This document shows positions 4,824 to 34,075 of a stretch of 64,000 nucleotides of DNA, piece after piece; the first letter of the stretch is position 1; every line of letters begins with the position of its first letter. The stretch spans positions 582,816-646,815 of the forward strand of contig JAPDJW010000002.1 in NCBI GenBank assembly GCA_029258885.1, written 5' to 3'. The position numbers were made by a program, and so were the translations under genes. Origin of the DNA: Thermoproteota archaeon (GTDB lineage: Archaea; Thermoproteota; Thermoprotei; Thermofilales; B9-G17). The notes below the pieces were generated by a model. It saw only the letters and a program-made list of their open reading frames with translations. It was not told where the DNA came from and did no database searches.

Positions 4824-5594
4824 CTACGGCAATATATCCACGCCTACGTTAATCCAAGCCTCCCTACGGGCAATCCTATAGCCGACCCCCAGATAGGCTC
4901 TCACGGCCGGAACATTATCGACGTTAACCCATAAGCATGCATACCTGCTCTTCTCCAACGCTTTCCTCGAAACATAGTACGTAATTGCCTTACCCAGCCC
5001 CCTACCCCTATACTCGGGATCAACCCATATAGAGCCAACCATGGATACCTCAGGCTCGTGAACGTACAGGCCGCCGAAGGCTATAATCCTATTACCCATA
5101 ACTGCCCCAAATCTTTTCCCTAGATACTCCATCCTCCTTGATATGAACTCCGGTATCTCGTAGCCGCTTAGATCAGTTAGCTCCGTAAACAATACATTTA
5201 GTTTCATGAGCGGTTCCTTAAGCATATCACCTGTAGCATACATACTGTAGGCCTCGTATAGGCTTAAAGGCTTCACGTACCGCAACGCTATTTCCCTATA
5301 TCGAATCGGGACATGTATTATGGCTCTCTTAAGAGGTATTCTGGAAGACACGTATTCAAATAATTCCGAAACCGCTTCACCTTCTTCTCCATCGATAATA
5401 ATCGATAAGTGATCTCTTAAACCATGGAATATTAACGCATAACCTTTTAAGACGTCATCCTCATAGTAGGCGTAAACCGTAGTTGATTCCCTCAAATGCC
5501 TAATATCGTGAATCGTGTAGGGATGTAGAAACGGTTCCCTCAGCACATATCTAAGTACTTCATCATACATATTCTCCATTACCTTCATGGCCAT
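4824..5594 (-). CDS. GNAT-family acetyltransferase
   Basis: Acetyl-CoA motif A: VDPEYRGRGLGK; also NVPAVRAY. Confidence 0.85.
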   Translation of the reverse strand: MAMKVMENMYDEVLRYVLREPFLHPYTIHDIRHLRESTTVYAYYEDDVLKGYALIFHGLRDHLSIIIDGEEGEAVSELFEYVSSRIPLKRAIIHVPIRYREIALRYVKPLSLYEAYSMYATGDMLKEPLMKLNVLFTELTDLSGYEIPEFISRRMEYLGKRFGAVMGNRIIAFGGLYVHEPEVSMVGSIWVDPEYRGRGLGKAITYYVSRKALEKSRYACLWVNVDNVPAVRAYLGVGYRIARREAWINVGVDILP

Positions 5595-5767
5595 CAGCCT
5601 CTACCGGCTCATAATCTAACTCCATTCATTCCCCAGGAATTTCCTTAACTATTCTCAGGGGCATATAGATCATATACTTGCATTATGTTATAAAATTGGA
5701 GGCTGCATTAAACTATGTCTTCTCTTAATTAACTTTTTTATTAATCTAAAGATTAAATATTATTAAC

Positions 5768-6370
5768 ATGGAGCTCTCCTGCGTGCTTTCGAGTATTAAA
5801 ACCTATTCTGAGGAATTAGGTCTTGATTTATCAAAGCCTGAGGATCGTTTCAAGTGGTTTCTAGCTTCGATACTTTTCGCTAAAAGAATTTCAGCCGATA
5901 TAGCTAAGAGGACTTTCTTTAGGTTTGTTGAGGAGGATTTAACTACTCCAGAAGCTATACTTGAGGCTGGCTGGGATAGGCTCGTCGAGGTACTTGATTC
6001 AGGCGGGTACGTTAGGTACGATTTCTCAACTGCATCTAATCTTCTCGAAATTATGGGTAAGCTTAAGAGGGAATACGGTAGCATAGATAAGCTACACGAG
6101 GTGGCCAGCGACCCTAGGGATCTAGAGAAGAGGCTCATGGAGTTTAAGGGCATTGGTCCAGTATGTGTAAATATATTCCTAAGGGAGCTTAGAGGCATAT
6201 GGAGTAAAGCTGACCCAAAGCCCTCTAATTTAGCTGTCAAAGTGGCTGAGAAGCTGGGGTTAAAGGACGTGAAACCCTATGAGTCGCAACTAGTCAGAAT
6301 ATATCTTGAGTACTGTAAGAAGAGGAAATGTGATTCATGCCCAGTAAGGATGTTCTGTAAAGCCAGGTAA
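5768..6370 (+). CDS. HhH-GPD/endonuclease III-like DNA-binding protein with a C-terminal 4-Cys cluster
   Basis: HhH motif FKGIGP; C-terminal CKKRKCDSCPVRMFC. Confidence 0.75.
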   Translation: MELSCVLSSIKTYSEELGLDLSKPEDRFKWFLASILFAKRISADIAKRTFFRFVEEDLTTPEAILEAGWDRLVEVLDSGGYVRYDFSTASNLLEIMGKLKREYGSIDKLHEVASDPRDLEKRLMEFKGIGPVCVNIFLRELRGIWSKADPKPSNLAVKVAEKLGLKDVKPYESQLVRIYLEYCKKRKCDSCPVRMFCKAR

Positions 6371-6406
6371 TAGAGGGATTATCATTCAGCCATGATGTAT
6401 TTCAGG

Positions 6407-7798
6407 CTACTTCAGGCAAACTATTACTGTTAGATCATTAACGTTAGTCCCCGTTGGACCGGTATATATTAGGTGTTTACCTAGCGCTTTGAAGAATGAA
6501 TAAGTATCGTGTCTACGTAGGTAGTCGAATATGTCCAGCCCTCTTCCCTCGGCCTCGCGTATAGTATATGCGTCAACGATGGCGCCAGCTGCATCACTGT
6601 TTCCATCTATTCCATCGGATCCAATTGATGCAAGCACAGCCCCTTTCATTCCATTTAGGTAGAGCGCTGCTGAGCATGCAAGCTCCTGATTTCTCCCACC
6701 CCAGCCTCCTCCATATACATCCAAGGTTACAGTCGTTTCGCCCCCGACGAGTACAGCACATGGTTTAGCTAACGGCCGATCCCTATAGTATATCTGCCTA
6801 GCTATTGAAGCGAGCACTATACCTACTTCCTTAGCCTCTCCCTCAAGGTATGAGGTTAAAACCATGGCATTAAGACCTAAATCTAAAGCTCTACTATACA
6901 TTGTGTTCAGTGAAATTTCATTGCTGGCGATAATCACATTATACACTCTCCTAAAGACTTTATCTCTGGGCTTAACAGTCTCCTCTATAAGCCCGTTCAA
7001 GCCTTTTTCAAGAACGTTCAGAATACTTTTAGGAGCCCTATCGGCTACGCCGTACTTTCTCAGAACATTTAAGGCATCGCTGAACGTGGATTTGTCAGGT
7101 GCAGTCGGCCCTGAGGCAATTGTATCCAGAGGGTCTCCAACCACATCCGAAATTATCAGCGATAACACGGTTGCTGGATAGGCTAATTTAGCTAGCTTTC
7201 CACCCTTAAGCTTCTCAACATGCTTCCTAACAACATTTACCTCATTGATGTTAGCCCCACTTCCCAATAGGAGCTTAGTTAAAGTCATCATGTCATCCAT
7301 TGATACTTCATCGTAGGGACAGCACATAAGCGCAGAACCACCGCCGGAGATAAGACATATTATCAAATCCCCTTCATCGGCACTACTAACTAGTGAAATT
7401 ATCTCCTCACTATGTCTCCTATTCTCCTCACTAGGTATCGGGTGCGTGGCGCCTAGAAGCTTAATCTTTTTCAACTTATACCTGTTAACCAATGGCTTAG
7501 GGACTATGACATAGCCACAATCAATGAAATCCCCTAGAATCTCCTCAAGCGCTTGAGCCATGCCCCCCGAGGCCTTACCAGCACCAACCACATAAACCCT
7601 ATTGAAGGAACCTAGCTTCAGCCTATACCCGTCCACCCTAAGCTCTCCATCTTCAATCTTCATTTTCCTACGGACAGCCTCACGTGGATCGGCGGCAGAC
7701 AATCCCTCATCCAACAGCTCTAGAGCTATCCTACGTGCTTCCCTGGTAACTTTATCGTAGACGTCCAGAAGCTCATCCACATTCCTAATATACCTCAT
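6407..7798 (-). CDS. gckA: Glycerate 2-kinase (MOFRL family)
   Basis: Motifs GAGKAS, LISGGGSAL, SDVVGD, IASGPT, GGETTV, GGRNQE, SDGIDG and TGTNVND. The probable start is ATG 7798. Confidence 0.92.
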   Translation of the reverse strand: MRYIRNVDELLDVYDKVTREARRIALELLDEGLSAADPREAVRRKMKIEDGELRVDGYRLKLGSFNRVYVVGAGKASGGMAQALEEILGDFIDCGYVIVPKPLVNRYKLKKIKLLGATHPIPSEENRRHSEEIISLVSSADEGDLIICLISGGGSALMCCPYDEVSMDDMMTLTKLLLGSGANINEVNVVRKHVEKLKGGKLAKLAYPATVLSLIISDVVGDPLDTIASGPTAPDKSTFSDALNVLRKYGVADRAPKSILNVLEKGLNGLIEETVKPRDKVFRRVYNVIIASNEISLNTMYSRALDLGLNAMVLTSYLEGEAKEVGIVLASIARQIYYRDRPLAKPCAVLVGGETTVTLDVYGGGWGGRNQELACSAALYLNGMKGAVLASIGSDGIDGNSDAAGAIVDAYTIREAEGRGLDIFDYLRRHDTYSFFKALGKHLIYTGPTGTNVNDLTVIVCLK

Positions 7799-7848
7799 AG
7801 CATTCCCACCCAACATACGGTTGTTCATGCAATAAGTTTTAACTGGAT

Positions 7849-8175
7849 TTAATCTGCCTCCTTTAAACTATTAACCAACTCCTCCAGATACTTCAGTCCA
7901 TCCTCTAGCAGTCTCCTACCCTTATTCGTTATAGAGTAGTACTTCCTATTCCCAATAGTCTTTGAAACAACGTAGTTTGCCTTTTCAAGCTTCTTAAAAA
8001 CAACATATGGCAGCACTAGTCCAGGGTCGAACCCGTGCTTCTCCCTAATTATATGAATTATCTCGTATGGATACCTATCCCTACTTTTAAGGTATGCTAG
8101 AATATATATCCAGAGGCACTCCACGCCAGTCTTCTTCTTAAGCCTCCTCAGCGGAGGCTCCTCCCTTAATGTCAT
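7849..8175 (-). CDS. PadR-family transcriptional regulator
   Basis: wHTH pattern YPYEII ... LY/PYVVFKKLEKANYV ... RKYYSITNKG. Confidence 0.85.
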   Translation of the reverse strand: MTLREEPPLRRLKKKTGVECLWIYILAYLKSRDRYPYEIIHIIREKHGFDPGLVLPYVVFKKLEKANYVVSKTIGNRKYYSITNKGRRLLEDGLKYLEELVNSLKEAD

Positions 8176-8248
8176 GGTGTAATATTATAGAAAAGAATAA
8201 ATATCGTTTATTATCTAATATACGTTAGAATCTAATGGCTGTTAGATA

Positions 8249-9439
8249 GTGGTCGGGATGATAAGGGTAGTTGTAATCGGTCAGGGGCAGGTTGCCTCAA
8301 ACTTCGTTGTAGGTCTCGAGAGGCTGAAGAAGGGTGAGATAGAGCCGTATGGAGTTCCGCTGGCAGACATGGATTTAGGCTATAATTTTAACGATATTAA
8401 AATAGTGGGCTCCTACGATGTTGATGCTGGGAAGGTTGGTAGAAGCCTCTATGATGTAGCCAAAATGTACTTTAACGAGGAGATTATTCCAGAGGAACTT
8501 AAGGACATATATGTTAGGAAGGGTATCTCGTTGGGAAAGCTTCAGGACATGCCCTTCGATATCGTTTCATTGGATGAGAATAACGGAAGCCTAAGTGATG
8601 TAATTGATCTTCTCTATGAGGAGTGGTGTAGGCTTAAGCCAGACGTTGTAGTCGATTTAACGACCACGCAATACGGTATAGTTTTTAGAGACTTCAAGAA
8701 GCTTGAGGAGACGGTCCTCAAGAACAACAGGGAGCTCCTTACTCCAAGCCAGGTATACTGTTATTCCCTTATAAAATATGTTGAGAACGTTAGGAGCGCA
8801 GCTTACGTTAACTGTATTCCAGTTCCTATAGCTAATGACCCAGCTATAGTGGGTAAGATGATGGAGGCAGGTGGCCTCGTATTGGGGGATGATGGAGCTA
8901 CAGGAGCTACACCACTCACCGCAGATATTCTTAGACATATGGCTGATAGAAATAGAAAGGTTCTATCTGTGGCACAGTTTAACATTGGCGGCAACCTAGA
9001 TTTCCTAGCTCTCTTAAATAAGGAGAGGAATAGGGCTAAGGAGTTCACTAAATCAAGCATAGTCAAGGACATCTTAGGATACGATGCTCCACACTACATT
9101 AGGCCGACGGGATACCTTGAACCCCTCGGAGATAAGAAGTTCGTAGCAATGCACCTAATATACAAATCATTCAATGGCGCAGAGGACGAAATAATAGTAA
9201 ACATGAGAATAAACGACAGCCCAGCACTAGCAGGCTATGTAGTGGATTTAGTAAGGCTAAGTAAGCTGGCACTAGATAACGAGATCTACGGCACAGTATA
9301 TGAGATAAACGCCTTCTACATGAAAAGGCCGGGACCTCTGGGATCAAAGAGCATCTCAAAAATATTAGCAAGAAGACTCTTGGGAGAATGGGTCGGAAAA
9401 GCCGCAAGAAAGCCCGTTAAAGCATACGAGATTATTTAG
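8249..9439 (+). CDS. ino1: myo-inositol-1-phosphate synthase
   Basis: Rossmann IGQGQVAS; motifs GDDGATGAT, QFNIGGNLDF, GDKK and NDSPALAG. Confidence 0.92.
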   Translation: MVGMIRVVVIGQGQVASNFVVGLERLKKGEIEPYGVPLADMDLGYNFNDIKIVGSYDVDAGKVGRSLYDVAKMYFNEEIIPEELKDIYVRKGISLGKLQDMPFDIVSLDENNGSLSDVIDLLYEEWCRLKPDVVVDLTTTQYGIVFRDFKKLEETVLKNNRELLTPSQVYCYSLIKYVENVRSAAYVNCIPVPIANDPAIVGKMMEAGGLVLGDDGATGATPLTADILRHMADRNRKVLSVAQFNIGGNLDFLALLNKERNRAKEFTKSSIVKDILGYDAPHYIRPTGYLEPLGDKKFVAMHLIYKSFNGAEDEIIVNMRINDSPALAGYVVDLVRLSKLALDNEIYGTVYEINAFYMKRPGPLGSKSISKILARRLLGEWVGKAARKPVKAYEII

Positions 9440-9492
9440 GTTAATAGCTAGAAATTTGGCGATGCCTAAGTATAAGTAGTAGATGTGTAGTC

Positions 9493-9921
9493 TTAAGACA
9501 TTTGACTTCTAATGTTTTGTGGAATAGGGTTTTCAAATATCAAGCCGTATTTTCTGCATAATTTTTCTATGTGTTTATCGTTTGAAACTATTATTGGAAT
9601 CCTATTTTCAAGTGCAGTAGCTAAGAGTAGTGCATCACCTAATGGCACGTTTTCCTCTACAGCGATAGTGAATCCACCGCTCGACGGAGGGATTAGGTTT
9701 AAGCCTCTGGCTACCAGCTCTATTTTAGAGGCAACCTTAGATCTAGGCCTAACCCTATAATACCAATATAGGGTATTATAAGCCTCTAATAACACGGTAT
9801 GGGTAACATATAACTCAATCTCCCCCACTAGTCCTTTCTCTATCAGAGGCTTAACATATGGTGAGGCTACGTGATTCTCAAGCAAACTATAGGATAAGAT
9901 GTCAGCATCAAGCATCCTCAT
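9493..9921 (-). CDS. vapC: PIN-domain toxin (VapC)
   Basis: All four acidic PIN residues are present (LDAD, LEAY, GDAL, NDKH). It overlaps the upstream AbrB-type gene by 4 nt. Confidence 0.88.
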   Translation of the reverse strand: MRMLDADILSYSLLENHVASPYVKPLIEKGLVGEIELYVTHTVLLEAYNTLYWYYRVRPRSKVASKIELVARGLNLIPPSSGGFTIAVEENVPLGDALLLATALENRIPIIVSNDKHIEKLCRKYGLIFENPIPQNIRSQMS

Positions 9922-21516: not shown

Positions 21517-21614
21517 CTATGTCATTTAATGTTACCTAATGATACATAAAATGCAATAAACTTATAAACTTTTTTCAAAATAGATGCCGTAAAAACCTAT
21601 AAGATGACTGTTAA

Positions 21615-22285
21615 CTACTTTATCCTACCATCTATTAGCCTAAGGCTCCTGGAGGAGTACTCTGCAACCAATGGATCGTGTGTAACGACGATTACTGTTG
21701 TTCCATGTTCCCTGTTGATTCTCTTAATTAGGTCGAGTACTGCAACCTTGGATTTATAGTCTAGGTTACCGGTAGGCTCGTCACATACTAGAAGCTTAGG
21801 CTCGTTTATCAGTGCTCTAACTATCGCTATCCTCTGCCTCTCTCCACCGCTGAGTTGTGGAGGCCTATGTTTTTCCCTATGGGATAGGCCGAGCATATCC
21901 AATAGCTTGCGTGCCTTCCTCCTACCCTCCTTAACGCTAGCTCCACTTATTATCGCTGGTAGGCTACGTTATCGAGAGCTGTCAGTTCGGGTATAAGGTT
22001 GTGGAACTGAAATACTATCCCTATATTACGTAGCCTAAACCTTGCAAGCTTCTTTTCGGGCATTGACGTGATGTCTACGCCACATACCTCAACCCGACCG
22101 CTGGTAGGCTTGTCGAGGGTTGAAATTATGTTTAGAAGCGTCGTCTTACCGCTTCCCGATGGACCCATTACACAGAGGAATTCTCCATGCTCCACTTTTA
22201 GGCTGACGCCTTTAAGGGCCTTAACTTCTATCGGCCTATCAACGTATACCTTAGTCACGTTATCCAGTTTAACTATGCTACTCAA
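21615..22285 (-). pseudogene. LolD/MacB-type ABC ATPase split by a 1-nt deletion
   Basis: The 5' part carries Walker A GPSGSGKTT and the 3' part LSGGERQR and CDEPTG. The junction GTA GCC TAC CAG CGA TAA reads A-L-P-A-I-I-S-G if one C is restored (about 21960). Confidence 0.85.
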
Positions 22286-24299: not shown

Positions 24300-25016
24300 A
24301 TGCCTGGATGGAAGAGGGTTTTAATAATTCTCCTTATACCCTTCGCCTTAAACTTGTCTATAAGCATGGTTATCTCGGCATATGCTGTCAGGCAGGCTAT
24401 TGAGCGCGATTTACCGCCAGAGGAGATAGGGTTTGAGGCTGCTAAGGCCCTCTTCACCTACAACTTCTACTGGTCTATCATACAGGTCACCCTAGGGCTC
24501 TACCTAGCAGGGAAAATGGGCGGTATGAAGTGGATTAAAGAGCAGTTTTCAAGCGAGGATTTCACTAAGTCGAAGCTCAACAGCATCCTAATAATTATTG
24601 GATTAATAGTGTTTTCCCAGCTCCTATTCATTATTGAATCCTATATTTCAGCGCTATCCTATGGGGGATACGATAAATATATTGAAATGTGGAATAGGCT
24701 GGTTAGTAGCCTCCCCCTCCTATCTAAAGTGTATTTAGTTGGGATAGCGCCCTTTACCGCTGGAATATTTGAGGAGATTATATGGAGAGGCTACGGCATT
24801 AATATGCTGGAGAAGGATTTTGACTCAAGGAAGGCAGTACTCCTGCAGGCTATAACCTTCGGACTATGGCATGTAACGCCATTGCATGTTGTCTTCACAT
24901 TTATCGTAGGGTTTGTATTCGGCTACATATATGTTAGGAGGAGGAAGCTCCTGGTAATATCGATAGCGCATATATTGACCGATATAGTGGGCTTTGGCAT
25001 GGCTTTTCTAAGATAA
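24300..25016 (+). CDS. CPBP (CAAX/Abi) intramembrane glutamic endopeptidase
   Basis: Motifs FEEIIWRGY, FGLWH and AHILTD. Confidence 0.88.
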   Translation: MPGWKRVLIILLIPFALNLSISMVISAYAVRQAIERDLPPEEIGFEAAKALFTYNFYWSIIQVTLGLYLAGKMGGMKWIKEQFSSEDFTKSKLNSILIIIGLIVFSQLLFIIESYISALSYGGYDKYIEMWNRLVSSLPLLSKVYLVGIAPFTAGIFEEIIWRGYGINMLEKDFDSRKAVLLQAITFGLWHVTPLHVVFTFIVGFVFGYIYVRRRKLLVISIAHILTDIVGFGMAFLR

Positions 25017-25048
25017 TACTTAAAATTTCCTTACTTTATTTATTACTC

Positions 25049-26320
25049 ATGTCTGAATTAATTGCGATACCAGAGGAAGTAATCAGCTATATCTACCTGA
25101 TACTATACGTATTTATAATAGGGCTAATCCTAACCGTAATATACAGTTTTATAGAGTGGTTCTCTAAGGATAGGGTTATAAAACTTATAGAGGGCAGGCG
25201 CGTTACAGTCTTTATAGGAAATGAGGCTATACACGGCAGGCTGGTGGCTCCATCTAAGAGCGGCGGAGCCTTCGAGATATTCTATGAACCCAATAAGATA
25301 GAAAATCCAGTATCCCTACTGGCCTTTCTAGTTGAAAACTATAAGGAGACTGGGGAGAAGAAGTTTATTAGGGAGGCTGAAACGCTAGTTAAGGACTTTA
25401 AATCGAGAGGGTTATTGCCGAGAAATTTCACCTTAAAGGATGTAGTGATTAATCCATGGTATCCTGCAAGCGTGGTTTCACGCAAGGTCTTCGCGGAGGA
25501 TCTAAACAACCTATACGCTATACTCATGTTCAGGCATATGATGACTGAGAGGGAGCTTAAGCACAAGTGGAGGGAGCTTAAAAACTTGTATCATCCATCA
25601 ATACACCATAGGATTAAGAGGAAGATCTATAACGCTGTATCATTCGCAAGGGATAAGCTAGCTTCAATGACCGCTGGAGTACCGCTGCCCTACCTGTCTC
25701 TACTGCCCTCAGACGTTCAGAAGGCTATTAAGGATGCCCAGAAACAGGCGATACTAATCATAGGCTCAAACTATAATCCACTGCTTGAAGACAGCATAGG
25801 TAGGCTCGTAACGGTTCAGGTTCAGGATATTGATGGCGAGATAAAGCTGTACCAGGGAGTACTCAAGGAGTATTCCTCAAAATACATAATGGTATATGAC
25901 GTCGACTACAGGATACAGATGATAACCGTATTTAAGGGCGATAAGGAGCTAGAAGGCTACCCGAAGCCAATATTCGAGCAACACGGCTTCATAATAGGAT
26001 CGGATAAACACCTAAAGATACTAGATACCGCCAGCTCAGGCAATGAATACAGGCTAACGCTAAGCAATATATCGAAGGAGCCAGTTAAGGTAGAAAAACT
26101 AGTGCTATCGGATAAAGAGGTACAGGTTAATAAAGTTCTCTTTCCAGGAGAGCAGGTGGAAGCATCCTTCAATATCGAAGGCAATGTTCCAAGTGAGCCT
26201 GAGGTAAAGGTGTACTACGAGATATGTAGGGAGGCGGACATAGTATGGCCCCTATCTAAGGCCAAAGTGATAGGCTCAGGAGATTATCCAGCAGAACTAC
26301 TCGAAGGAATACTCAGGTAG
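25049..26320 (+). CDS. Conserved hypothetical protein with an N-terminal TM anchor
   Basis: 423-aa ORF with one TM helix and two beta-barrel-like segments (VTVFIGNEAIHGRL; VTVQVQDIDGEIKLYQGVL). No catalytic motif recognised. Confidence 0.65.
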   Translation: MSELIAIPEEVISYIYLILYVFIIGLILTVIYSFIEWFSKDRVIKLIEGRRVTVFIGNEAIHGRLVAPSKSGGAFEIFYEPNKIENPVSLLAFLVENYKETGEKKFIREAETLVKDFKSRGLLPRNFTLKDVVINPWYPASVVSRKVFAEDLNNLYAILMFRHMMTERELKHKWRELKNLYHPSIHHRIKRKIYNAVSFARDKLASMTAGVPLPYLSLLPSDVQKAIKDAQKQAILIIGSNYNPLLEDSIGRLVTVQVQDIDGEIKLYQGVLKEYSSKYIMVYDVDYRIQMITVFKGDKELEGYPKPIFEQHGFIIGSDKHLKILDTASSGNEYRLTLSNISKEPVKVEKLVLSDKEVQVNKVLFPGEQVEASFNIEGNVPSEPEVKVYYEICREADIVWPLSKAKVIGSGDYPAELLEGILR

Positions 26321-26620: not shown

Positions 26621-28306
26621 TTAAGTTAGATAAGATATCAGGACGAGCATTATGAATGATATTGCTATGAGCATTATCGAGGCGAAAAGGGAGGCCGGTA
26701 TCGCTAGGGATTCAACCATGTTTACAACCAGTGTTGATACGGTTATGTCGTTGCCCATAACTAGGAAGGTTGCCCCTGTTTCGCCCAGTGAGTGTGTAAA
26801 TGCCAGCATGCTTCCGGCTATAATCCCCCTCTTAATCATAGGCAACGTTATTGTTTCGGTTACATCATAGGGATTAGCCCCTAAAGTTCTCGCCGTATCC
26901 TCGTAGAACTCAACGTTATTTTCCCTATAGGATGCTAGGCTAGTTTCAACGATCACGGGCACAGAGAAAACTATGTGGGTTAATATTATAAGCCATATCG
27001 ACGGGCTTATCAGGTTTAAACCGTAGGGACCCCAGAGCAGTATCATCGATAAGCCTAGTGCGCTCGTCGGAACTACTAGGGGCACCTTAAGTAGTGCTCT
27101 AACGATGTTCCCATACTTTGACTTCACTATAAACATTACAAGGAATATTGCTAGATAGGCTGAGAGGAACGTGGATATAGAGGCTGAAATAAAGGATGTA
27201 ATCGTGGAGGATACTATAGCCTTAAAGTAGTTCGCTGGTCCAAAAAGCTGATAAAGTACGCTTCCCTTAACCCTACCAGTATAGGGCTCCCTCTCCCAGT
27301 AGGCTGCTGTGAAAGCTGCGAGAGTAGCTATAGGTAGGATTATAATTACAATAAGTGAGATTATCGATAGGGCATCCTTAGCAAGTGACAATCTACGTCC
27401 AACCCTACGTTCAAGCCTTATTAGTCTATCCTCGATGTTCTGGGGGATAAGTCTTAAACCTCTCGACTTCCACCCCCTACTGCTGAGCATATACTCTATA
27501 GGTAATATCAGGATTAACGCTATGGCTACTAATAGTGAACCTAGGAAGGCTGCTGGTGCAATCTTGTTCTCAAACTCCCACCTAACGATTGCTACTGATG
27601 CAGTTGTACTTACCCCTGCAACTATCATGGTGGCTCCAGTCTCACCCAGGGAGCGGGCGAACGCAAGCACGCCGCCGGAGAATATGCTTGAGGTTATAAG
27701 TGGAAACGTAATCTTCCTAAATGTTGTTAAAGGTTTTGCACCGAGCGAAGCTGAGACTATCTCGTACGCCTTCTGGACATCCATAAGCGCTGCAGATACG
27801 GTTTTAACGATATAGGGGAAGGTCAGCGATACGTGTACGATTAAAACTAGCAGAGGTATCTCAAACACGGGAACTACGGTATCTATCCTAACCTTTAGCC
27901 CTAGGAGGGCTGGCAGGCTCTCGCTTGCAGTCCACGTAATTAGTGTCGCGAATCCGAAGCCGGAGGTCGGTATTACCAGGGGTAGCGCTGTAAGCTGTTC
28001 GATAAACTTCTTACCTGGAAATTCCTTCCTAGCTATAAGGTATGCGAGAGGGACTCCTATGAGCATATCTATTGCTACGGTAACTAGAGCTAGCCTGAAG
28101 GATAGGGATAGATACCTCAGTATTTGAAGCCAGTAGTAGTTCCCTATGATGGGGTTAGCGAATATCTCCGTGTATACTTCGCCCCACCTGAGGAATACGA
28201 AGGAGAAGAGGTAGAAGGAAGGCAGAAACACGAATATAATCGACGCGACGACGATTATCGATTTAAGCAGGTACTCCAGCCTCCTAAGGCTCTTAAGGTA
28301 GCTCAT
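26621..28306 (-). CDS. ABC importer permease, two fused BPD_transp_1 domains (CysTW/ModB/FbpB-like)
   Basis: Two EAA-type loops (SASLGAKPLTTFRKITFP; ARTLGANPYDVTETITLP) and two SLGETGAT motifs. Confidence 0.9.
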   Translation of the reverse strand: MSYLKSLRRLEYLLKSIIVVASIIFVFLPSFYLFSFVFLRWGEVYTEIFANPIIGNYYWLQILRYLSLSFRLALVTVAIDMLIGVPLAYLIARKEFPGKKFIEQLTALPLVIPTSGFGFATLITWTASESLPALLGLKVRIDTVVPVFEIPLLVLIVHVSLTFPYIVKTVSAALMDVQKAYEIVSASLGAKPLTTFRKITFPLITSSIFSGGVLAFARSLGETGATMIVAGVSTTASVAIVRWEFENKIAPAAFLGSLLVAIALILILPIEYMLSSRGWKSRGLRLIPQNIEDRLIRLERRVGRRLSLAKDALSIISLIVIIILPIATLAAFTAAYWEREPYTGRVKGSVLYQLFGPANYFKAIVSSTITSFISASISTFLSAYLAIFLVMFIVKSKYGNIVRALLKVPLVVPTSALGLSMILLWGPYGLNLISPSIWLIILTHIVFSVPVIVETSLASYRENNVEFYEDTARTLGANPYDVTETITLPMIKRGIIAGSMLAFTHSLGETGATFLVMGNDITVSTLVVNMVESLAIPASLFASIMLIAISFIMLVLISYLT

Positions 28307-28315
28307 ACTACCACT

Positions 28316-29449
28316 CTATACTCCAGGATTCCTAACCTTCTCCCAGACCTTAAAGAGAGCCTCCAGAACCTCCCCACTAGGAGGCTTAAGAACCCTAACC
28401 TTAATCTCGTAGCTTACACCGTTATCCTCATTGAATATATCGCTTGATAGGGGAACCGCTGGATTAGCTGGCCTAAAGCCGTGCTTCTGAGCAAGCTCCT
28501 GAATCTCCGGCTGAAGTAGGAAGTAGAGGTACTGGGAGGCGGCGAATTTCTGCATTGACGTAACCCATTCTGCATCGAGGATGACGAATGGATGGTCGCT
28601 TAGCAGGGTGCCGAAGGTGGAGTATACGGCCTTTAGTCCATCACCCCACTTATTCCTAGCCTTCAAAGCGTTATCGATAACTATGTTCTCGTATACTCCG
28701 AAGAAGCTTATAGCATCGGGACCATTGTCTACAGCCCACTTACCGAAGAAGCCCGTGCTCTTACCGTAGGCGACAGCCTTAGACTCAATAGTCCTAACTA
28801 TCTCGATAACAGTCTCGTTCATTAAATCCTCCACTGTAAGCTGATCCGGCGTCTTACCCGCAGCTTCACAGAACTCCAGCAATACCGTCATTGTGCCGCC
28901 GTTGCTGAGCTGGGGGTCGGGATGACCCCACTTAAAGTCCACGTCACCTTCAGCGAGCCTATATAAGTCCATGAAGCAGGTGATGTTGTATTCATCTACC
29001 AGGCTCGACCATCCGGCTATAACTACCGGAGAGAGGACTAGAGGATACCATTCATTCGCTATCGTGTAGCCGTGTTCATCCATCCAGAGTTTATTAAGGT
29101 ATGGTATCCATATGCTTGAAGCCGGACTCCAGATGGTGGGTTTAACACTTCCGTGGATGATGAGGTTCACGGATTCATGGGTGCCAGCTGGGATAAGGTT
29201 TACCTTAATATCGACGCCGAATTTCTCCTTAAACCACTTCTCGAAAAGCGGCGTAACCTCCTCAATCCAGCTCTGTTTCTCACTTGAGTAAAGGAAGGTT
29301 ATCTCGATGCTCTTAACGACCTCGCCTCCACTACTTACGCTGGGCCTATACATGCTTGAAATAGCAGATGTTATAAGCATCCCCAGAATTATCCCCGTTA
29401 TAAGCAGGAGGTATCCTCTCCTCGGTAGCAACCTCATCGGCTTCACCAT
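28316..29449 (-). CDS. Membrane-anchored substrate-binding protein of the type usually fused to vWA (SBP_bac_11-like)
   Basis: Motifs YSSEK, WSPASS, SPVVIA, WGHPDP..SNGG, YGKSTG, YEN, SDHPF, GFRPA and NGV; ends at WEKVRNP with no vWA domain. Confidence 0.75.
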   Translation of the reverse strand: MVKPMRLLPRRGYLLLITGIILGMLITSAISSMYRPSVSSGGEVVKSIEITFLYSSEKQSWIEEVTPLFEKWFKEKFGVDIKVNLIPAGTHESVNLIIHGSVKPTIWSPASSIWIPYLNKLWMDEHGYTIANEWYPLVLSPVVIAGWSSLVDEYNITCFMDLYRLAEGDVDFKWGHPDPQLSNGGTMTVLLEFCEAAGKTPDQLTVEDLMNETVIEIVRTIESKAVAYGKSTGFFGKWAVDNGPDAISFFGVYENIVIDNALKARNKWGDGLKAVYSTFGTLLSDHPFVILDAEWVTSMQKFAASQYLYFLLQPEIQELAQKHGFRPANPAVPLSSDIFNEDNGVSYEIKVRVLKPPSGEVLEALFKVWEKVRNPGV

Positions 29450-30105
29450 TTCCTAACAACGAACTCCCTAATACAGTCACAAGTATCCTCGCATTTATCC
29501 GCCATCATCTCTATAGCATCAAGCAGGTGGAACGTCACTATGGCGAAAACCGGGGTAAGATTGCTACACTTATAGAGAAAAACTCTCCTAGCCTCCTGAT
29601 AGAGGTCATCAACCTCCTCCTCAAGCCTCTCGACCCTATCCGCCAAATCGAGGGTGGCTATGGGATCCTTAAACATCATAAGAATGCTTTCATGAGTAGC
29701 CTTAGCGGTATCCAGAACCCTATTTAACATTTTCAAGGCGACCTGCCTAAGCTCCGGACAGACGCCGTCTGGAGGTATGAGAGTCATTAGTCTGGCGGCC
29801 TCCAGCGCCCAGTCAGCCACCCAATCAACCTGCCTAACGATCCTAGCAAGATAAGTCCTTATACCGGGATCCATCTCAGCCTCAGCCAGTAGATCAAGGA
29901 TCTTCCTCCTAATACCGTCGGCCTCGCTCTCGATATTAGCTACCCTCTGAAACAATCCCTCATCTATCGTGCTTTCATCAGCCCATTTACTAGCGAACTT
30001 AACGAATTCACTTACAGTCTCAATAATGTGCTCCGAGTGTCTAACTATCTCCTCCCTAATCCTCTTCTGACGCCTAGCCGAAAACCAGCTTCCAACATCA
30101 CTCAT
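29443..30105 (-). CDS. DUF47 PhoU-like phosphate transport regulator
   Basis: Duplicated helical acidic motifs IESEADGIRR..DWVAD and LEEEVDDLY..EMMADKCED. Confidence 0.85.
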   Translation of the reverse strand: MSDVGSWFSARRQKRIREEIVRHSEHIIETVSEFVKFASKWADESTIDEGLFQRVANIESEADGIRRKILDLLAEAEMDPGIRTYLARIVRQVDWVADWALEAARLMTLIPPDGVCPELRQVALKMLNRVLDTAKATHESILMMFKDPIATLDLADRVERLEEEVDDLYQEARRVFLYKCSNLTPVFAIVTFHLLDAIEMMADKCEDTCDCIREFVVRKW

Positions 30106-31201
30106 AAGCTATCGCCTTATCTAAACCTTCCCTAGGATACTTAAAAATGTATGCCCTATCTAAAGTCAAGAAGACACGGGATCCAATGCTAACAGAGGGA
30201 GCGGATAAGCGTGGAACCTTAACTAAAACACTACCTCCACCAGTCTCAACCATGTAGCGGTAGTATGAGCCTAGAAAATTAACCTCCTTAACGATGCCTG
30301 ATATCGAGTTATCGGGTCTAGAGCCGCCAGCCCTAACAATCGACACGTGTTCAGGCCTAATCCCCAAAACAACCTTCTCGCCTATCCTAAAACCTATAGA
30401 CGATTCAACCAAGACGCGTTCCTCGCCGAGGTTAACCTTAACCCTACCATCCATCGTTTCCTCAACCAATCCCTCTAAGAAGCTGGCTTCGCCGCCGATA
30501 AACTTAGCTATGAAAGGCGTCTTAGGCCTAGCATATATCTCGAATGGAGTCCCAACCTGCTCCACCCTACCCTTCCTCATAACAATTATTCTATCGGCAA
30601 TGCTTAAAGCCTCCTCCTGGTTATGGGTAATATGCAGAGCTGTCAACTTAAGATCCTTGACGAGATGCCTAAGCTCGAACCTCAACGTCTTAGCTGCACG
30701 TGGATCAACCGAGCCCAAGGGTTCATCCAGCAACAGTATCCTAGCGCCAGCCGCAACAGCTCTAGCAATAGCCACCTTCTGTTGAGTACCACGGCTAAGC
30801 TCATGAGGCATAGCACTCCTCCTCAAGTGTAGAGACATAGACCTCAAGACCTCATTACCTATAAACTCAGCCCTATCGTATCCAAGCCCCCTCACAAGTG
30901 GACCGTAGGAGACGTTATCCCAAACATTCATATGTGGAAACAGGAGTATATCCTGCATAACAAGGCCGAGACCCCTCTCGCTGATAGGAACGTTATTTAC
31001 AAGCCTACCGCCTATATAGACCTCGCCCTCATCCGGCTCAATAATCCCGGAGATAACCTTAATTAAGCTGCTCTTCCCGCTTCCACTAGGACCTATAATA
31101 CAGACGTACTCGCCGTCAAATACCTTCACCGAAACCTTATATAGGGCGACTATACGCTCCTCATATATCTTAGTAACATTCCTAACCTCGATATCAGGCA
31201 T
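30098..31201 (-). CDS. ABC ATPase (PotA/MalK-like with TOBE), degenerate signature LSRGT
   Basis: GPSGSGKSS, LSRGTQQK, LLLDEP and HITH. The probable start is ATG 31201. Confidence 0.9.
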   Translation of the reverse strand: MPDIEVRNVTKIYEERIVALYKVSVKVFDGEYVCIIGPSGSGKSSLIKVISGIIEPDEGEVYIGGRLVNNVPISERGLGLVMQDILLFPHMNVWDNVSYGPLVRGLGYDRAEFIGNEVLRSMSLHLRRSAMPHELSRGTQQKVAIARAVAAGARILLLDEPLGSVDPRAAKTLRFELRHLVKDLKLTALHITHNQEEALSIADRIIVMRKGRVEQVGTPFEIYARPKTPFIAKFIGGEASFLEGLVEETMDGRVKVNLGEERVLVESSIGFRIGEKVVLGIRPEHVSIVRAGGSRPDNSISGIVKEVNFLGSYYRYMVETGGGSVLVKVPRLSAPSVSIGSRVFLTLDRAYIFKYPREGLDKAIAYE

Positions 31202-31202
31202 A

Positions 31203-32291
31203 TTACTCCACCGCAATAGCCTTCATTAAGCCTTCCCTCGGATACGGATAGATAAGCCCATACCTCGGGGGAAGGTGAACATAAACGTAATCGTCAACCT
31301 TAACATCGGGGGCAACGCTAGTCCAGACATTAACGTGCATCTCAACACCATTAACGTCAACCAAAAACCTTGTAACTATACCTATGAACTCCCTCTCCAC
31401 AACCCTACCCCTAAAAACGTTCAAGTCGGTAGGAGGCGGATCAACCGATAAAACGATGTCCTCAGGCCTATAGGCCACCACGACGTGCCAGAACCTAACA
31501 GGCCTAGTATATACGTGGATAACCCCCAGCTTATCAGTCTCTATAACCCCTAGGCCAAGCCTAATACCACGCAGAATACCCTCAATAAAGTTAACTTCAC
31601 TGAGAAAGTTGGCGACGAAGAGGTTAGCTGGGTTCATGTAAACCTCTCTCGGGGAGCCGATCTGCTGAACAATACCCTTCCTCAGAACCATCATCCTATC
31701 AGCAATACTCATAGCCTCCTCAACATTATGGGTAACATGGAGAACAGTTAAGCCCAGCTCCCTACAGAGATTCTTCAACTCGTACCTAAGCTCAATATTA
31801 AGAAGAATATCAAGAGCACTTAGGGGTTCATCGAGAAGAAGAAGCTTAGAACCAGCAGCCAGAGCCCTAGCCAAGGCAATCCTCTGCTGCTGACCACCGC
31901 TAAGCTCATGGGGATACGAATCCCTCCTATGATACAACCCAACGAGCTTAAGAGCATCAGCAACCTTCTCCTCAGGCAACCCCTTCATCCCAGCCCCATA
32001 CGCAACATTATCCCAAACAGTCATATGGGGGAAGAGAGCATAGCCCTGAGGCATATAGCTGACATTCCTAACTTCAGGAGGAAAATCCGTAACGTCAACA
32101 CCATCGATAATAACACGACCCTTATCGGGTCTAATGAGGCCAGAAATAACTTTAAGCAGGGTAGTCTTGCCAGCACCAGTAGGGCCGAGAATACAGAAGT
32201 ACTCCCCATCGCCAACCCTAAAGCTAACATTCCTCAAAGCCCTAATACTACCGTACGACTTAGACACTGAATCAACAACCAGCTCAGGCAT
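31203..32291 (-). CDS. ABC ATPase (PotA/MalK-like with TOBE), canonical signature
   Basis: GPTGAGKTT, LSGGQQQR, LLLDEP and HVTH. The probable start is ATG 32291. Confidence 0.9.
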   Translation of the reverse strand: MPELVVDSVSKSYGSIRALRNVSFRVGDGEYFCILGPTGAGKTTLLKVISGLIRPDKGRVIIDGVDVTDFPPEVRNVSYMPQGYALFPHMTVWDNVAYGAGMKGLPEEKVADALKLVGLYHRRDSYPHELSGGQQQRIALARALAAGSKLLLLDEPLSALDILLNIELRYELKNLCRELGLTVLHVTHNVEEAMSIADRMMVLRKGIVQQIGSPREVYMNPANLFVANFLSEVNFIEGILRGIRLGLGVIETDKLGVIHVYTRPVRFWHVVVAYRPEDIVLSVDPPPTDLNVFRGRVVEREFIGIVTRFLVDVNGVEMHVNVWTSVAPDVKVDDYVYVHLPPRYGLIYPYPREGLMKAIAVE

Positions 32292-32335
32292 CAAAAACCA
32301 AATACAAAACAAAAATATAAAGATGTTGCACAACA

Positions 32336-32779
32336 TTAAAACCTATATCTAAAACGCCTAAAAAGGAGCGGAGGAATAGAAACAGAGAAAACAGAAACAG
32401 GAAATAGGGGATTAGATAAAACATAGGCTAGAAAATCAATCCTAAAAAGGAGAATCAAAACATGATGCAAAGCATCAAGGGAAATAAGGAAAGTCAAGGG
32501 ATATATGGAATACAGGCAGGCATAGGACAAAACCCTGAAAACATCCCCGTATTCAACATACCTCCTGGAGAGCGAGAGAAAATACCTATGAAGAAGAATA
32601 AGTGAAGTATAGAGAATCGTAGCTAAAACGACAGCAACCGAAACAAAATACCTACCCAGAAAACCATAAAGGGGATTATGTTCACAAAAGCCGAAATAGG
32701 AAAGCTCATACCAAGTACATACGACACTAAACTCATTGAGAAATATGCCTAAAATCGATAGCCCAATAATTTTCTTCAA
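32336..32779 (-). CDS. Small multi-TM membrane protein (DUF5658-like)
   Basis: Four hydrophobic helices; E-x-NP motif (FCEHNPLY); strongly T-rich coding strand. Confidence 0.5.
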   Translation of the reverse strand: MKKIIGLSILGIFLNEFSVVCTWYELSYFGFCEHNPLYGFLGRYFVSVAVVLATILYTSLILLHRYFLSLSRRYVEYGDVFRVLSYACLYSIYPLTFLISLDALHHVLILLFRIDFLAYVLSNPLFPVSVFSVSIPPLLFRRFRYRF

Positions 32780-32965
32780 CTTCCTATTCGTACGCCCTCA
32801 CCTGTTTTTCACGAGTGTTCTATAGTGCATGCACGAAGCTTCGAGTTAGACTTTCTTCATTATATGGAATTTTCCATCCTTATTAGTACTTATTGTAGCT
32901 GTAATTCGCTCATATATTTTATCGGGCTGATGACTGTAACGCGCCCATATCTACAATGTCTTCCA

Positions 32966-34075
32966 TTATCTTCTATATATCTTAATTCTTCTTGTATGTT
33001 TTTCCAGTTCTTTCTCCAGTACTTCTACTCCTATTCCCGGCTTTTTGGGTACGTCTATTGTTCCGTCGTTGTTTAGCGTGAATTCCGGCTCAACTATGTC
33101 TTTCTTCCAGTACCTGTTGCTTGCCGATATGTCGCTTGGATAGATTACTCCAGGTAGCGATGCTAGGGCTACATTATGTGCTCTTCCTATCCCTGTTTCA
33201 AGCATGCCTCCTATCCATACACCTAGTCCATGCTGCATCCAGAACTTCTGGATTTCTATTGACGTAGCGTGTCCGCCCACTCTTGCGGGCTTAATGTTTA
33301 TTACCCTACAGCTTCCGATCCTGTATGCTCTTACGGCGTCCTCCAGGCATTTTATGCTCTCGTCCAGACATATATCCGTTTTAATCAGCTTCTGGAGGTA
33401 TGAATGATCTATCAGGTCGTTGTAGTCCAGCGGCTGCTCTATCATGAGCAGGTTGTAGTCGTCAAGTTTCCTCAGCGTCTCGAGGTCGTTTAACGTGTAG
33501 GCGGCGTTTGCATCGACCTGAAGCATTATATCAGGATATTCTTTTCTTATTCTCTCGACTACCTCTACGTCCCATCCCGGCTTAATCTTAATTTTAATTC
33601 TGGGATATCCCTCGTCGAGCCTACGCTGAATAACCTTAATCAGCTCATCGACGGTTCTCTTTATCCCTATGCTTACGCCGCTCACTATCCTATCCCTTAC
33701 GCCCCCTAGAACCTCGTATAGGGGCTTAGATTGGAGCCGTGCATAGCAGTCCCATAGAGCCATCTCGACTCCCGCCTTAGCCATGTTGTGGCCGCGTATA
33801 CTCTTAACTATATTCGGGAATTCCCGGGGTGACTCAAGCTCCCTGCCGAGAGTCCAGGGGATTATGTAGTCCTCGAGGATGTGCCAGGCGGTTTTAACGG
33901 TTTCATAGGAGTACCAGGGCCCGTATTCTACGGGTATTTCAGCCCAGCCCTCCACGTCGTCACAAATAATCCTAACGATGATGCAGAGCCTCAGGAGGGT
34001 TTTACCGAAGCTTGTCTCAAACTCCTCCTTAAGCTTCATCTCAACGATTCTAAGCTCAATAAGCCTAACCTTCAA
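32966..34075 (-). CDS. menC: o-succinylbenzoate synthase / N-acylamino-acid racemase (enolase superfamily)
   Basis: Motifs KIKIKPG, VDANAAY, IEQPL, LDESI, NIKPARVGG, GGMLETGIG and PSDIS. Confidence 0.9.
   Translation of the reverse strand: MKVRLIELRIVEMKLKEEFETSFGKTLLRLCIIVRIICDDVEGWAEIPVEYGPWYSYETVKTAWHILEDYIIPWTLGRELESPREFPNIVKSIRGHNMAKAGVEMALWDCYARLQSKPLYEVLGGVRDRIVSGVSIGIKRTVDELIKVIQRRLDEGYPRIKIKIKPGWDVEVVERIRKEYPDIMLQVDANAAYTLNDLETLRKLDDYNLLMIEQPLDYNDLIDHSYLQKLIKTDICLDESIKCLEDAVRAYRIGSCRVINIKPARVGGHATSIEIQKFWMQHGLGVWIGGMLETGIGRAHNVALASLPGVIYPSDISASNRYWKKDIVEPEFTLNNDGTIDVPKKPGIGVEVLEKELEKHTRRIKIYRR

Follow-up and report, generated by a model that had tools for sequence, protein, structure and literature searches.

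A candidate phosphate-type ABC importer operon carrying its own DUF47 gene in a Thermofilales archaeon and its relatives

We analyzed a 64,000-nucleotide stretch of a Thermoproteota archaeon genome (Thermofilales; GenBank assembly GCA_029258885.1, contig JAPDJW010000002.1, positions 582,816 to 646,815; the whole stretch is called the window here) for an operon that encodes an ATP-binding cassette (ABC) importer. Five co-oriented minus-strand open reading frames (ORFs), spanning positions 26621 to 32336, encode in order two ATPases (ATPase1 and ATPase2), a DUF47 protein, a substrate-binding protein (SBP), and a fused double permease (Table 1). The four junctions between them measure −14, −8, −7, and +9 nt (negative values are overlaps). 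The longest ORF for ATPase1 spans 31203 to 32336; its probable start is the internal Met16 at 32291, in agreement with the starts of its homologues. ORF calls and domain matches confirm the five packed or overlapping genes, in this order, that an initial annotation of the window had described. The gene order is kept in 14/14 related genomes whose flanks were fetched and is thus not a product of chance. An SBP-dependent ABC importer with a PhoU-type partner is a kind of system already known, and the analysis below concerns what this one is built from and what it may carry.

Table 1. Genes of the importer operon and its upstream region (positions in the window)
Feature	Position	Strand	Description
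ATPase1	31203..32291	minus	ABC_tran and C-terminal TOBE_2 domains; canonical motifs (GPTGAGKT, LSGGQQQR, LLLLDEP, HVTHN)
ATPase2	30098..31216	minus	ABC_tran and TOBE_2 domains; 14-nt overlap with ATPase1
DUF47/PhoU_div protein, 220 aa	29443..30105	minus	Overlaps the genes on either side; presumed PhoU-like accessory regulator
SBP, 377 aa	28316..29449	minus	PF13531 SBP_bac_11; N-terminal membrane anchor
Fused double permease, 561 aa	26621..28306	minus	Two BPD_transp_1 stretches; ~12 transmembrane (TM) helices
Region from menC to ATPase1, presumed to hold promoter and leader	32292..32965	minus	Pyrimidine-rich; holds a 147-aa hydrophobic ORF

To Pfam, the SBP is a member of SBP_bac_11 (3.3e-12), with PF13416 as the only further match. 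It passes no curated NCBIfam family model, those for ModA, WtpA, and Sbp included. Every motif quoted for it in the initial annotation is found in the translation, namely, YSSEK (residues 54 to 58), WSPASS (107 to 112), GHPDP..SNGG (175 to 185), YGKSTG (228 to 233), YEN (253 to 255), SDHPF (284 to 288), and GFRPA (324 to 328), followed by the C-terminal end WEKVRNPGV. The membrane anchor is a single TM helix at residues ~11 to 33. Homologues with 55 to 72% identity come from metagenome-assembled genomes (MAGs) labeled Thermoprotei, Thermofilaceae, and Bathyarchaeota, and more distant stand-alone copies (34 to 44% identity) come from Asgard archaea.

Structure comparisons placed the SBP near the sulfate-binding proteins. 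Using an AlphaFold2 model (pLDDT of 95.7), Foldseek returned the sulfate-binding proteins 5um2 and 1sbp as the top solved folds. A second structural comparison (VIA) gave Z scores of 28.2 for 5um2 and 28.0 for 1sbp, with ~295 residues aligned at 16 to 17% identity, followed by a thiamine-binding protein (Z of 27.2) and then by SubI, AfuA, PhnS, and HptA (Z of ~25). A PDB sequence search with the single SBP reached only an E value of 0.06. A profile of the family was built from stand-alone SBPs, as one that included fusions to von Willebrand factor A (vWA) domains had been swamped by vWA matches; in the PDB, this profile matched sulfate-binding proteins only, with 1sbp at an E value of 1e-7, and hhalign aligned the family with Escherichia coli Sbp at 94% probability. 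The SBP as modeled is a class II SBP fold that is closest to the sulfate-binding protein. With solved folds no closer than this, and with no NCBIfam match, the initial placement of the SBP outside the characterized families holds.

The hhalign alignment can be read against the ligand-contacting residues of Sbp in the 1SBP structure. Ligand residue Asp11 is aligned with S55/S56 of YSSEK, Ser45 with T90, Ser130-Gly132 with the SNGG loop at a helix start, Ala173 with the region of the invariant S231-T232-G233, and Trp192 with the invariant Y253 of YEN, a motif also present in SubI. The conserved loops of the family (YSSEK, G-T/S90, SNGG, STG, and YEN) fall at these positions, which is consistent with a site for a small tetrahedral oxyanion. 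These five loops are the most conserved parts of the family, while E57, K58, H176, and the SDHP segment are specific to it.

The two ATPases are distinct TOBE-type proteins that are 43% identical to each other. ATPase2 has intact Walker A, Walker B, and H-loop motifs but a degenerate signature, LSRGTQQK, where LSGGQ is expected. The variants LSRG, LSLG, and LSMG are kept in the second ATPase of every locus where both ATPase genes precede the SBP gene, and in some others as well, and operons with a single ATPase carry the canonical signature LSGGM. Given the general geometry of ABC dimers, the replacement of LSGG by LSRG suggests that the transporter of this lineage has one consensus and one degenerate ATP site. 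The second ATPase of some Bathyarchaeia operons (L109 and L113) has another signature variant, LSGG[VI]AQM, so the asymmetry of the ATPase pair differs in form between lineages.

The permease carries the EAA loop SLGETGAT in both halves (at ~219 and ~506). Both halves score best on the ModB, CysT, and WtpB models and far lower on ThiP, PotB/PotC, and PhnU. The N-terminal half just passes the ModB model TIGR02141 (191.1 bits versus a cut-off of 182.6), which makes the permease the sole operon protein to pass any curated NCBIfam model. The operon is otherwise not a ModABC or WtpABC system, with WtpC at 298 versus 440 bits and no ModA or WtpA match for the SBP. Sulfate transporter models were likewise not reached (157 versus 240 bits on TIGR00969; 248 and 210 versus 343 bits for the two ATPases on the CysA model TIGR00968), and the SBP matches no Sbp/CysP model. 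On the Pst models, the permease scored 35.9 bits for PstC in the whole-genome search (TIGR02138; 64.2 bits in a single-protein scan) versus a cut-off of 196, and the ATPases scored 133 and 124 bits for PstB (TIGR00972) versus 343. Scores for phosphonate and ferric importers were also below the cut-offs (PhnU2, 73.8 versus 593; PhnT2, 308.8 versus 457.7; ferric ATPase model, 228 versus 496), and the window operon has only the fused-permease layout in common with PhnS2T2U2 or Fbp-type importers.

The third gene product is a PhoU_div protein (PF01865, 1.1e-21, 77.6 bits versus a cut-off of 24.4). It also matches PhoU once (PF01895, 3e-6, 27.9 versus 23.5 bits), reaches only 17.9 versus 130 bits on TIGR02135, and has two ExxxD motifs (E59..D63 and E162..D166). 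Across 80 further loci, the transporter genes occur in three layouts: ATPase1-ATPase2-DUF47-SBP-permease, SBP-permease-ATPase(-ATPase)-DUF47, and DUF47-SBP-permease-ATPase. A locus was taken as complete if it contained all transporter genes flanked by 1.2 kb or more on each side, and a DUF47 gene was counted when it lay within 600 nt. By ORF clustering, DUF47 adjoins the transporter in 32 of the 43 complete loci, or in 33/43 with L107, where it was detected by tblastn; two ATPases are present in 24 of the 43 and one in 19. The DUF47 linkage reported initially is conserved, and its retention through gene rearrangements is good evidence of a functional link with the transporter.

PhoU-type regulators form clades that are each tied to one Pi-importer family (PhoU with Pst, PitR/PhoU_div with PitA, and the NptA PhoU domain), according to a 2026 study (PMC13170248). 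PhoU itself has been reported to contact PstB and PhoR (PMC7326077). The operon's DUF47 shares PF01865 membership and the ExxxD motifs with PitR of the PitA-PitR system (PMC13170248, PMC7326077), but it lies within an ABC operon rather than beside a PiT gene, with an ABC importer as its partner transporter. In our tree, the PiT-adjacent DUF47s (the genome's own copy and those of L060, L081, and L117) fall outside a group of 50 ABC-linked DUF47s; this group has modest support (89/65) as a whole and good support for its inner clades. A separate PiT, paired with a DUF47 of its own (C1:121015-121623), is also retained in the genome. The idea that the operon's DUF47 replaces the usual PiT partner, put forward in the initial annotation, is therefore not tenable. 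By analogy with PhoU, the most likely role of the DUF47 encoded here is to modulate the importer's ATPases.

The neighborhoods of related loci are of a phosphate type. In two of them (L085 and L087), a complete, co-directional pst operon whose genes all score above NCBIfam cut-offs immediately precedes the importer operon, in the order AbrB-PhoU regulator (divergent), pstS, pstC, pstA, pstB, phoU, DUF47, SBP, permease, ATPase, DUF47. In three others (L059, G201, and G251), pst is found within ~5 kb of the operon, and in L060, L081, and L117, a PiT gene adjoins it. In ~18 loci, including MAGs labeled Odin- and Baldrarchaeota, the SBP gene itself lies divergent from an ortholog of this AbrB-PhoU regulator. 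A CTATATAGTTTATATA...TGTAG...AACTAT element, which may include the regulator's own promoter, recurs in the spacers between regulator and SBP gene and in the one between regulator and pstS of L087. The neighbors that recur across lineages are pst, phoU, PiT, AbrB-PhoU, and DUF47; cys or mod genes are never among them. No conserved catabolic enzyme (phosphonatase, C-P lyase, phosphite dehydrogenase, or phosphatase) was found beside the operon in the 80 loci. The PhoU-like regulated, phosphate-type importer proposed in the initial annotation thus gains a link to phosphate through adjacency to pstSCAB-phoU, PiT, and AbrB-PhoU, while its ligand is still something that we infer. As a side observation, six closely related Bathyarchaeia loci, and only these, have a low-molecular-weight phosphatase/ArsC-like (LMWPc) gene convergent with the operon end (L099:12720-13124, minus strand), which could hint at arsenate handling or may reflect lineage synteny only.

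We also surveyed phosphate transporters in whole genomes. The window's genome (2.1 Mb, 99.9% complete) has no PstS (PF12849 matches nothing genome-wide) and no PstC or PstB above curated cut-offs; its best PstC-like sequence is the operon's own permease. One PiT is present, as is a bona fide WtpABC elsewhere in the genome. A Sat-type ATP sulfurylase was not found, and the PAPS-reductase-family matches are long fused ORFs that do not settle whether sulfate is assimilated. Among 41 relatives, 9 have the operon and Pst, 9 only the operon, 14 only Pst, and 9 neither. Strict phyletic complementarity of the operon and Pst was rejected on these counts, as both systems occur together in 9 of the 41. 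All of these relatives with a completeness of 90% or more carry PiT, Pst, the operon, or some combination of them, and in three genomes (G026 and G027, 92 to 93% complete; G012, 85%), the operon is the only candidate phosphate transporter, with no Pst, PiT, or NptA. In the genus of G026, which has an intact operon and no Pst or PiT, G028 combines a Pst system (pstS/pstC/pstA on contig C6) with a decayed operon copy. This copy (L031, on G028:C18, ~5284 to 9818), one of the 14 with the five-gene order, is decaying: its SBP gene is interrupted by stop codons, its permease gene is in fragments, and its DUF47 gene is cut short.

In a sample of 201 Bathyarchaeia genomes, for which all statistics ignore kinship, the operon was present in 19. 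Neither Pst nor PiT was found in 10 of these 19 versus 56 of the 182 others (P = 0.07). The census in this group is consistent with a phosphate ligand without being decisive.

Taken together, the parts of the operon are sulfate/molybdate-like while its neighbors are phosphate-like; we favor, with a probability of roughly 55%, a Pho-regulon type I ABC importer that takes up phosphate or a close phosphorus oxyanion and is throttled by DUF47. In such a system, the surface-anchored SBP, a remote relative of the sulfate-binding protein, would capture a small tetrahedral oxyanion, most likely Pi or a near phosphorus oxyanion, and hand it to the fused 12-TM ModB/CysT-type permease. A heterodimer of the two TOBE-bearing ATPases, with one consensus and one degenerate composite ATP site, would power transport. 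The co-translated DUF47 could act on these ATPases as PhoU does on PstB and, once the cytoplasm holds enough phosphate, either throttle uptake or report on the activity of the transporter. In other lineages, the operon would be under the same divergent AbrB-PhoU regulator as pst, and in the window's genome, which lacks Pst, it may serve as a high-affinity phosphate route alongside the low-affinity PiT.

Like PstSCAB-PhoU, the window operon encodes a type I ABC importer that depends on an SBP, together with an accessory protein of the PhoU type, and related genomes put it in the same regulated locus (with the same AbrB-PhoU regulator, downstream of pst, or in the place of pst). Every component nevertheless comes from another family: the SBP is SBP_bac_11/Sbp-like rather than PBP_like_2, the ModB/CysT-like permease is a fusion, the ATPases form a TOBE-bearing heterodimer, and the accessory protein is matched best by PhoU_div (DUF47) rather than by the two-domain PhoU. 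The operon also resembles CysPTWA with Sbp (1SBP, 5UM2, and SubI 6DDN), which provides the best structural match over the whole SBP domain, counterparts of the anion loops, including WEN/YEN, and a permease and TOBE ATPases of a related type. It differs from that system in the low SBP identity (16 to 17%, with no Sbp/CysP model match), in the family's own invariants E57, K58, H176, and SDHP, and in a context that is phosphate-type and never that of sulfur assimilation.

Several observations weigh against a phosphate importer. The nearest solved folds bind sulfate rather than phosphate, with PstS absent from the top matches, and the pocket chemistry is deduced from a remote alignment (16 to 20% identity). 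The AbrB-PhoU regulators of these archaea are themselves uncharacterized, and five complete loci (L044 to L047 and L050) have no DUF47. Pst co-occurs in 9 of the 18 operon-bearing relatives. In the Bathyarchaeia sample, the anticorrelation with Pst is only borderline (6/19 genomes with the operon versus 104/182 without it; Fisher P = 0.05), and 56 genomes lack all three systems, which weakens the census there. Finally, an operon that adjoins pst in several loci could mean that its ligand is a different one.

This last point leads to the alternative that we consider the best of the less likely ones, namely, that the operon imports another phosphorus source (phosphite, thiophosphate, pyrophosphate, phosphonate, or a small organophosphate such as glycerol phosphate) as a Pho-regulon scavenger beside Pst, comparable to Ugp or Phn in bacteria. 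Two transporters encoded together, as in the five cases of a complete pst nearby (L059, L085, L087, G201, and G251), suit two ligands. The structural neighbors just below Sbp are PhnS (2-aminoethylphosphonate) and AfuA, VcA0625, and HptA (hexose phosphates), all at a Z score of 25, and the invariant Trp residues and charged E57, K58, H176, D285, and H286 exceed the needs of a bare oxyanion site. PhnT2 is also the best ATPase model, but its score, like that of PhnU2, is far below the cut-off. Also against this alternative, none of the enzymes sought next to the operon in the 80 loci (phosphonatase, C-P lyase, phosphite dehydrogenase, and phosphatase) is conserved there, the loops that match the small-anion site of Sbp are what the family conserves best, and an importer restricted to other phosphorus compounds would leave G026 and G027 without any orthophosphate transporter.

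A sulfate/thiosulfate or molybdate/tungstate importer, in which the PhoU-like genes would serve general anion transport regulation, seems a little less probable still. The closest solved folds and the sole PDB profile matches are sulfate-binding proteins, the neighbors of the SBP in the protein atlas are sulfate-binding clusters, the permease passes ModB in its N-terminal half and has ModB/CysT-type EAA loops in both, and the ATPases have TOBE domains, as do CysA, ModC, and WtpC, whereas PstB does not. However, the genome already has a bona fide WtpABC and no detected Sat-type ATP sulfurylase, the SBP matches no ModA, WtpA, or Sbp family model, and the neighbors that recur across lineages are phosphate-type, never cys or mod. 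We regard a non-oxyanion substrate (a metal ion or chelate, a polyamine, or thiamine), with a DUF47 role unrelated to phosphate, as very unlikely. Thiamine-, polyamine-, and ferric-binding proteins lie only 1 to 5 Z units below Sbp, the fused permease and TOBE ATPases resemble Fbp/Thi-type systems, and the invariant Glu, Asp, His, and Tyr residues of the SBP could bind a cation, but the permease halves favor ModB, CysT, and WtpB far above ThiP, PotB/PotC, and PhnU, iron, thiamine, and polyamine genes are not among the neighbors, and the phosphate-type context would be left unexplained.

The phosphate reading also bears on a large bacterial protein family. In a search of 1.8 billion cluster representatives, the next relatives of the SBP after the archaeal stand-alone proteins (30 to 38% identity) were mostly proteins of 555 to 650 aa, and all four of those that were domain scanned proved to be SBP-vWA fusions. 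The initial annotation had linked this SBP type to such fusions, which this search bears out. In longer fusions, an OpuAC domain, an SBP_bac_3 domain, or a Ser/Thr kinase is added, and the family is annotated as "substrate-binding and VWA domain" or "Ca-activated chloride channel homolog." The fusions share a homologous SBP domain and the conserved loops with the window SBP, which by contrast ends at residue 377, has no vWA domain in a Pfam scan, and is encoded in a transporter operon. In 80 metagenomic SBP-vWA loci (L119 to L198), tandem paralogues are usual, followed by a 241-aa protein without known function (30 loci), PspA/IM30 (13/80), and an AAA ATPase (11/80). None of these loci has a DUF47 gene, only 2 have a permease match, and ~4 have a PstS-like gene. 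The gene sets look like a membrane stress module rather than a transport module, and no phosphate context was found around the fusions in these 80 loci, where the neighbors are PspA, an AAA ATPase, and unknowns. The initial suggestion that the operon offers a ligand clue for the whole SBP-vWA family thus finds no backing in the fusion loci. The shared loops make the same ligand class plausible, to which genomic context adds no independent support, and a phosphate-type clue for the family is speculative.

A broader proposal can be offered as a tentative one that we hold less probable than the phosphate reading. The operon may represent a Pst-independent phosphate ABC importer family of Thermofilales-like Thermoprotei, Bathyarchaeia, and Asgard archaea, with an Sbp-like SBP, a ModB/CysT-like fused permease, asymmetric ATPases, and its own PhoU_div clade, which would be a fourth pairing of a PhoU clade with a Pi importer. 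The bacterial SBP-vWA fusions would then be extracytoplasmic sensors of the same oxyanion.

Other features of the region were noted. Most of the pyrimidine-rich stretch of 630 nt that separates menC from ATPase1 is taken up by a highly hydrophobic ORF of 147 aa that starts with TTG (32336 to 32779, minus strand). Neither Pfam nor tblastn against 14 related loci gave a match for it, and it is a small membrane protein restricted to this lineage or else a spurious leader ORF; the upstream region has no Rfam match to a known RNA or riboswitch. The menC gene (o-succinylbenzoate synthase, low-GC/archaeal type; 363 bits versus a cut-off of 201) immediately precedes the operon at 32966 to 34075 (minus strand) and is not kept beside it in relatives. 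On the other side, a CPBP/CAAX-type intramembrane protease (238 aa) and a 423-aa protein without a family match (24300 to 26320, plus strand) are both convergent with the permease gene. Two adjacent ABC ATPase fragments at 21555 to 22228 (minus strand; G000:C1:604370-605043), one with two TAG codons, look like a decayed gene. Outside the window, a 657-aa MoeA with a C-terminal PBP_like domain (G000:C2:75928-77901; L036:5928-7901) lies beside a second MoeA and MoaA and belongs to a molybdopterin/tungsten cofactor cluster.

Literature searches found no description of this operon type, and its genes are currently misannotated, for example, as "Ca-activated chloride channel family" or as an iron/polyamine-type ABC transporter. 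Few archaea are as abundant in sediments as Bathyarchaeia and their relatives, whose phosphate uptake is deduced in metabolic reconstructions solely from genes for Pst and PiT. If the operon imports phosphate, genomes that are now scored as lacking high-affinity uptake do have such a system. It would then add a new pairing to the rule of one PhoU clade per Pi importer (PMC13170248) and would show that a binding scaffold of the sulfate type had been recruited to phosphate in nature. The operon is also an example of a type I importer in which a degenerate ATP site is conserved, and it gives a testable starting ligand for the large, uncharacterized SBP-vWA family.

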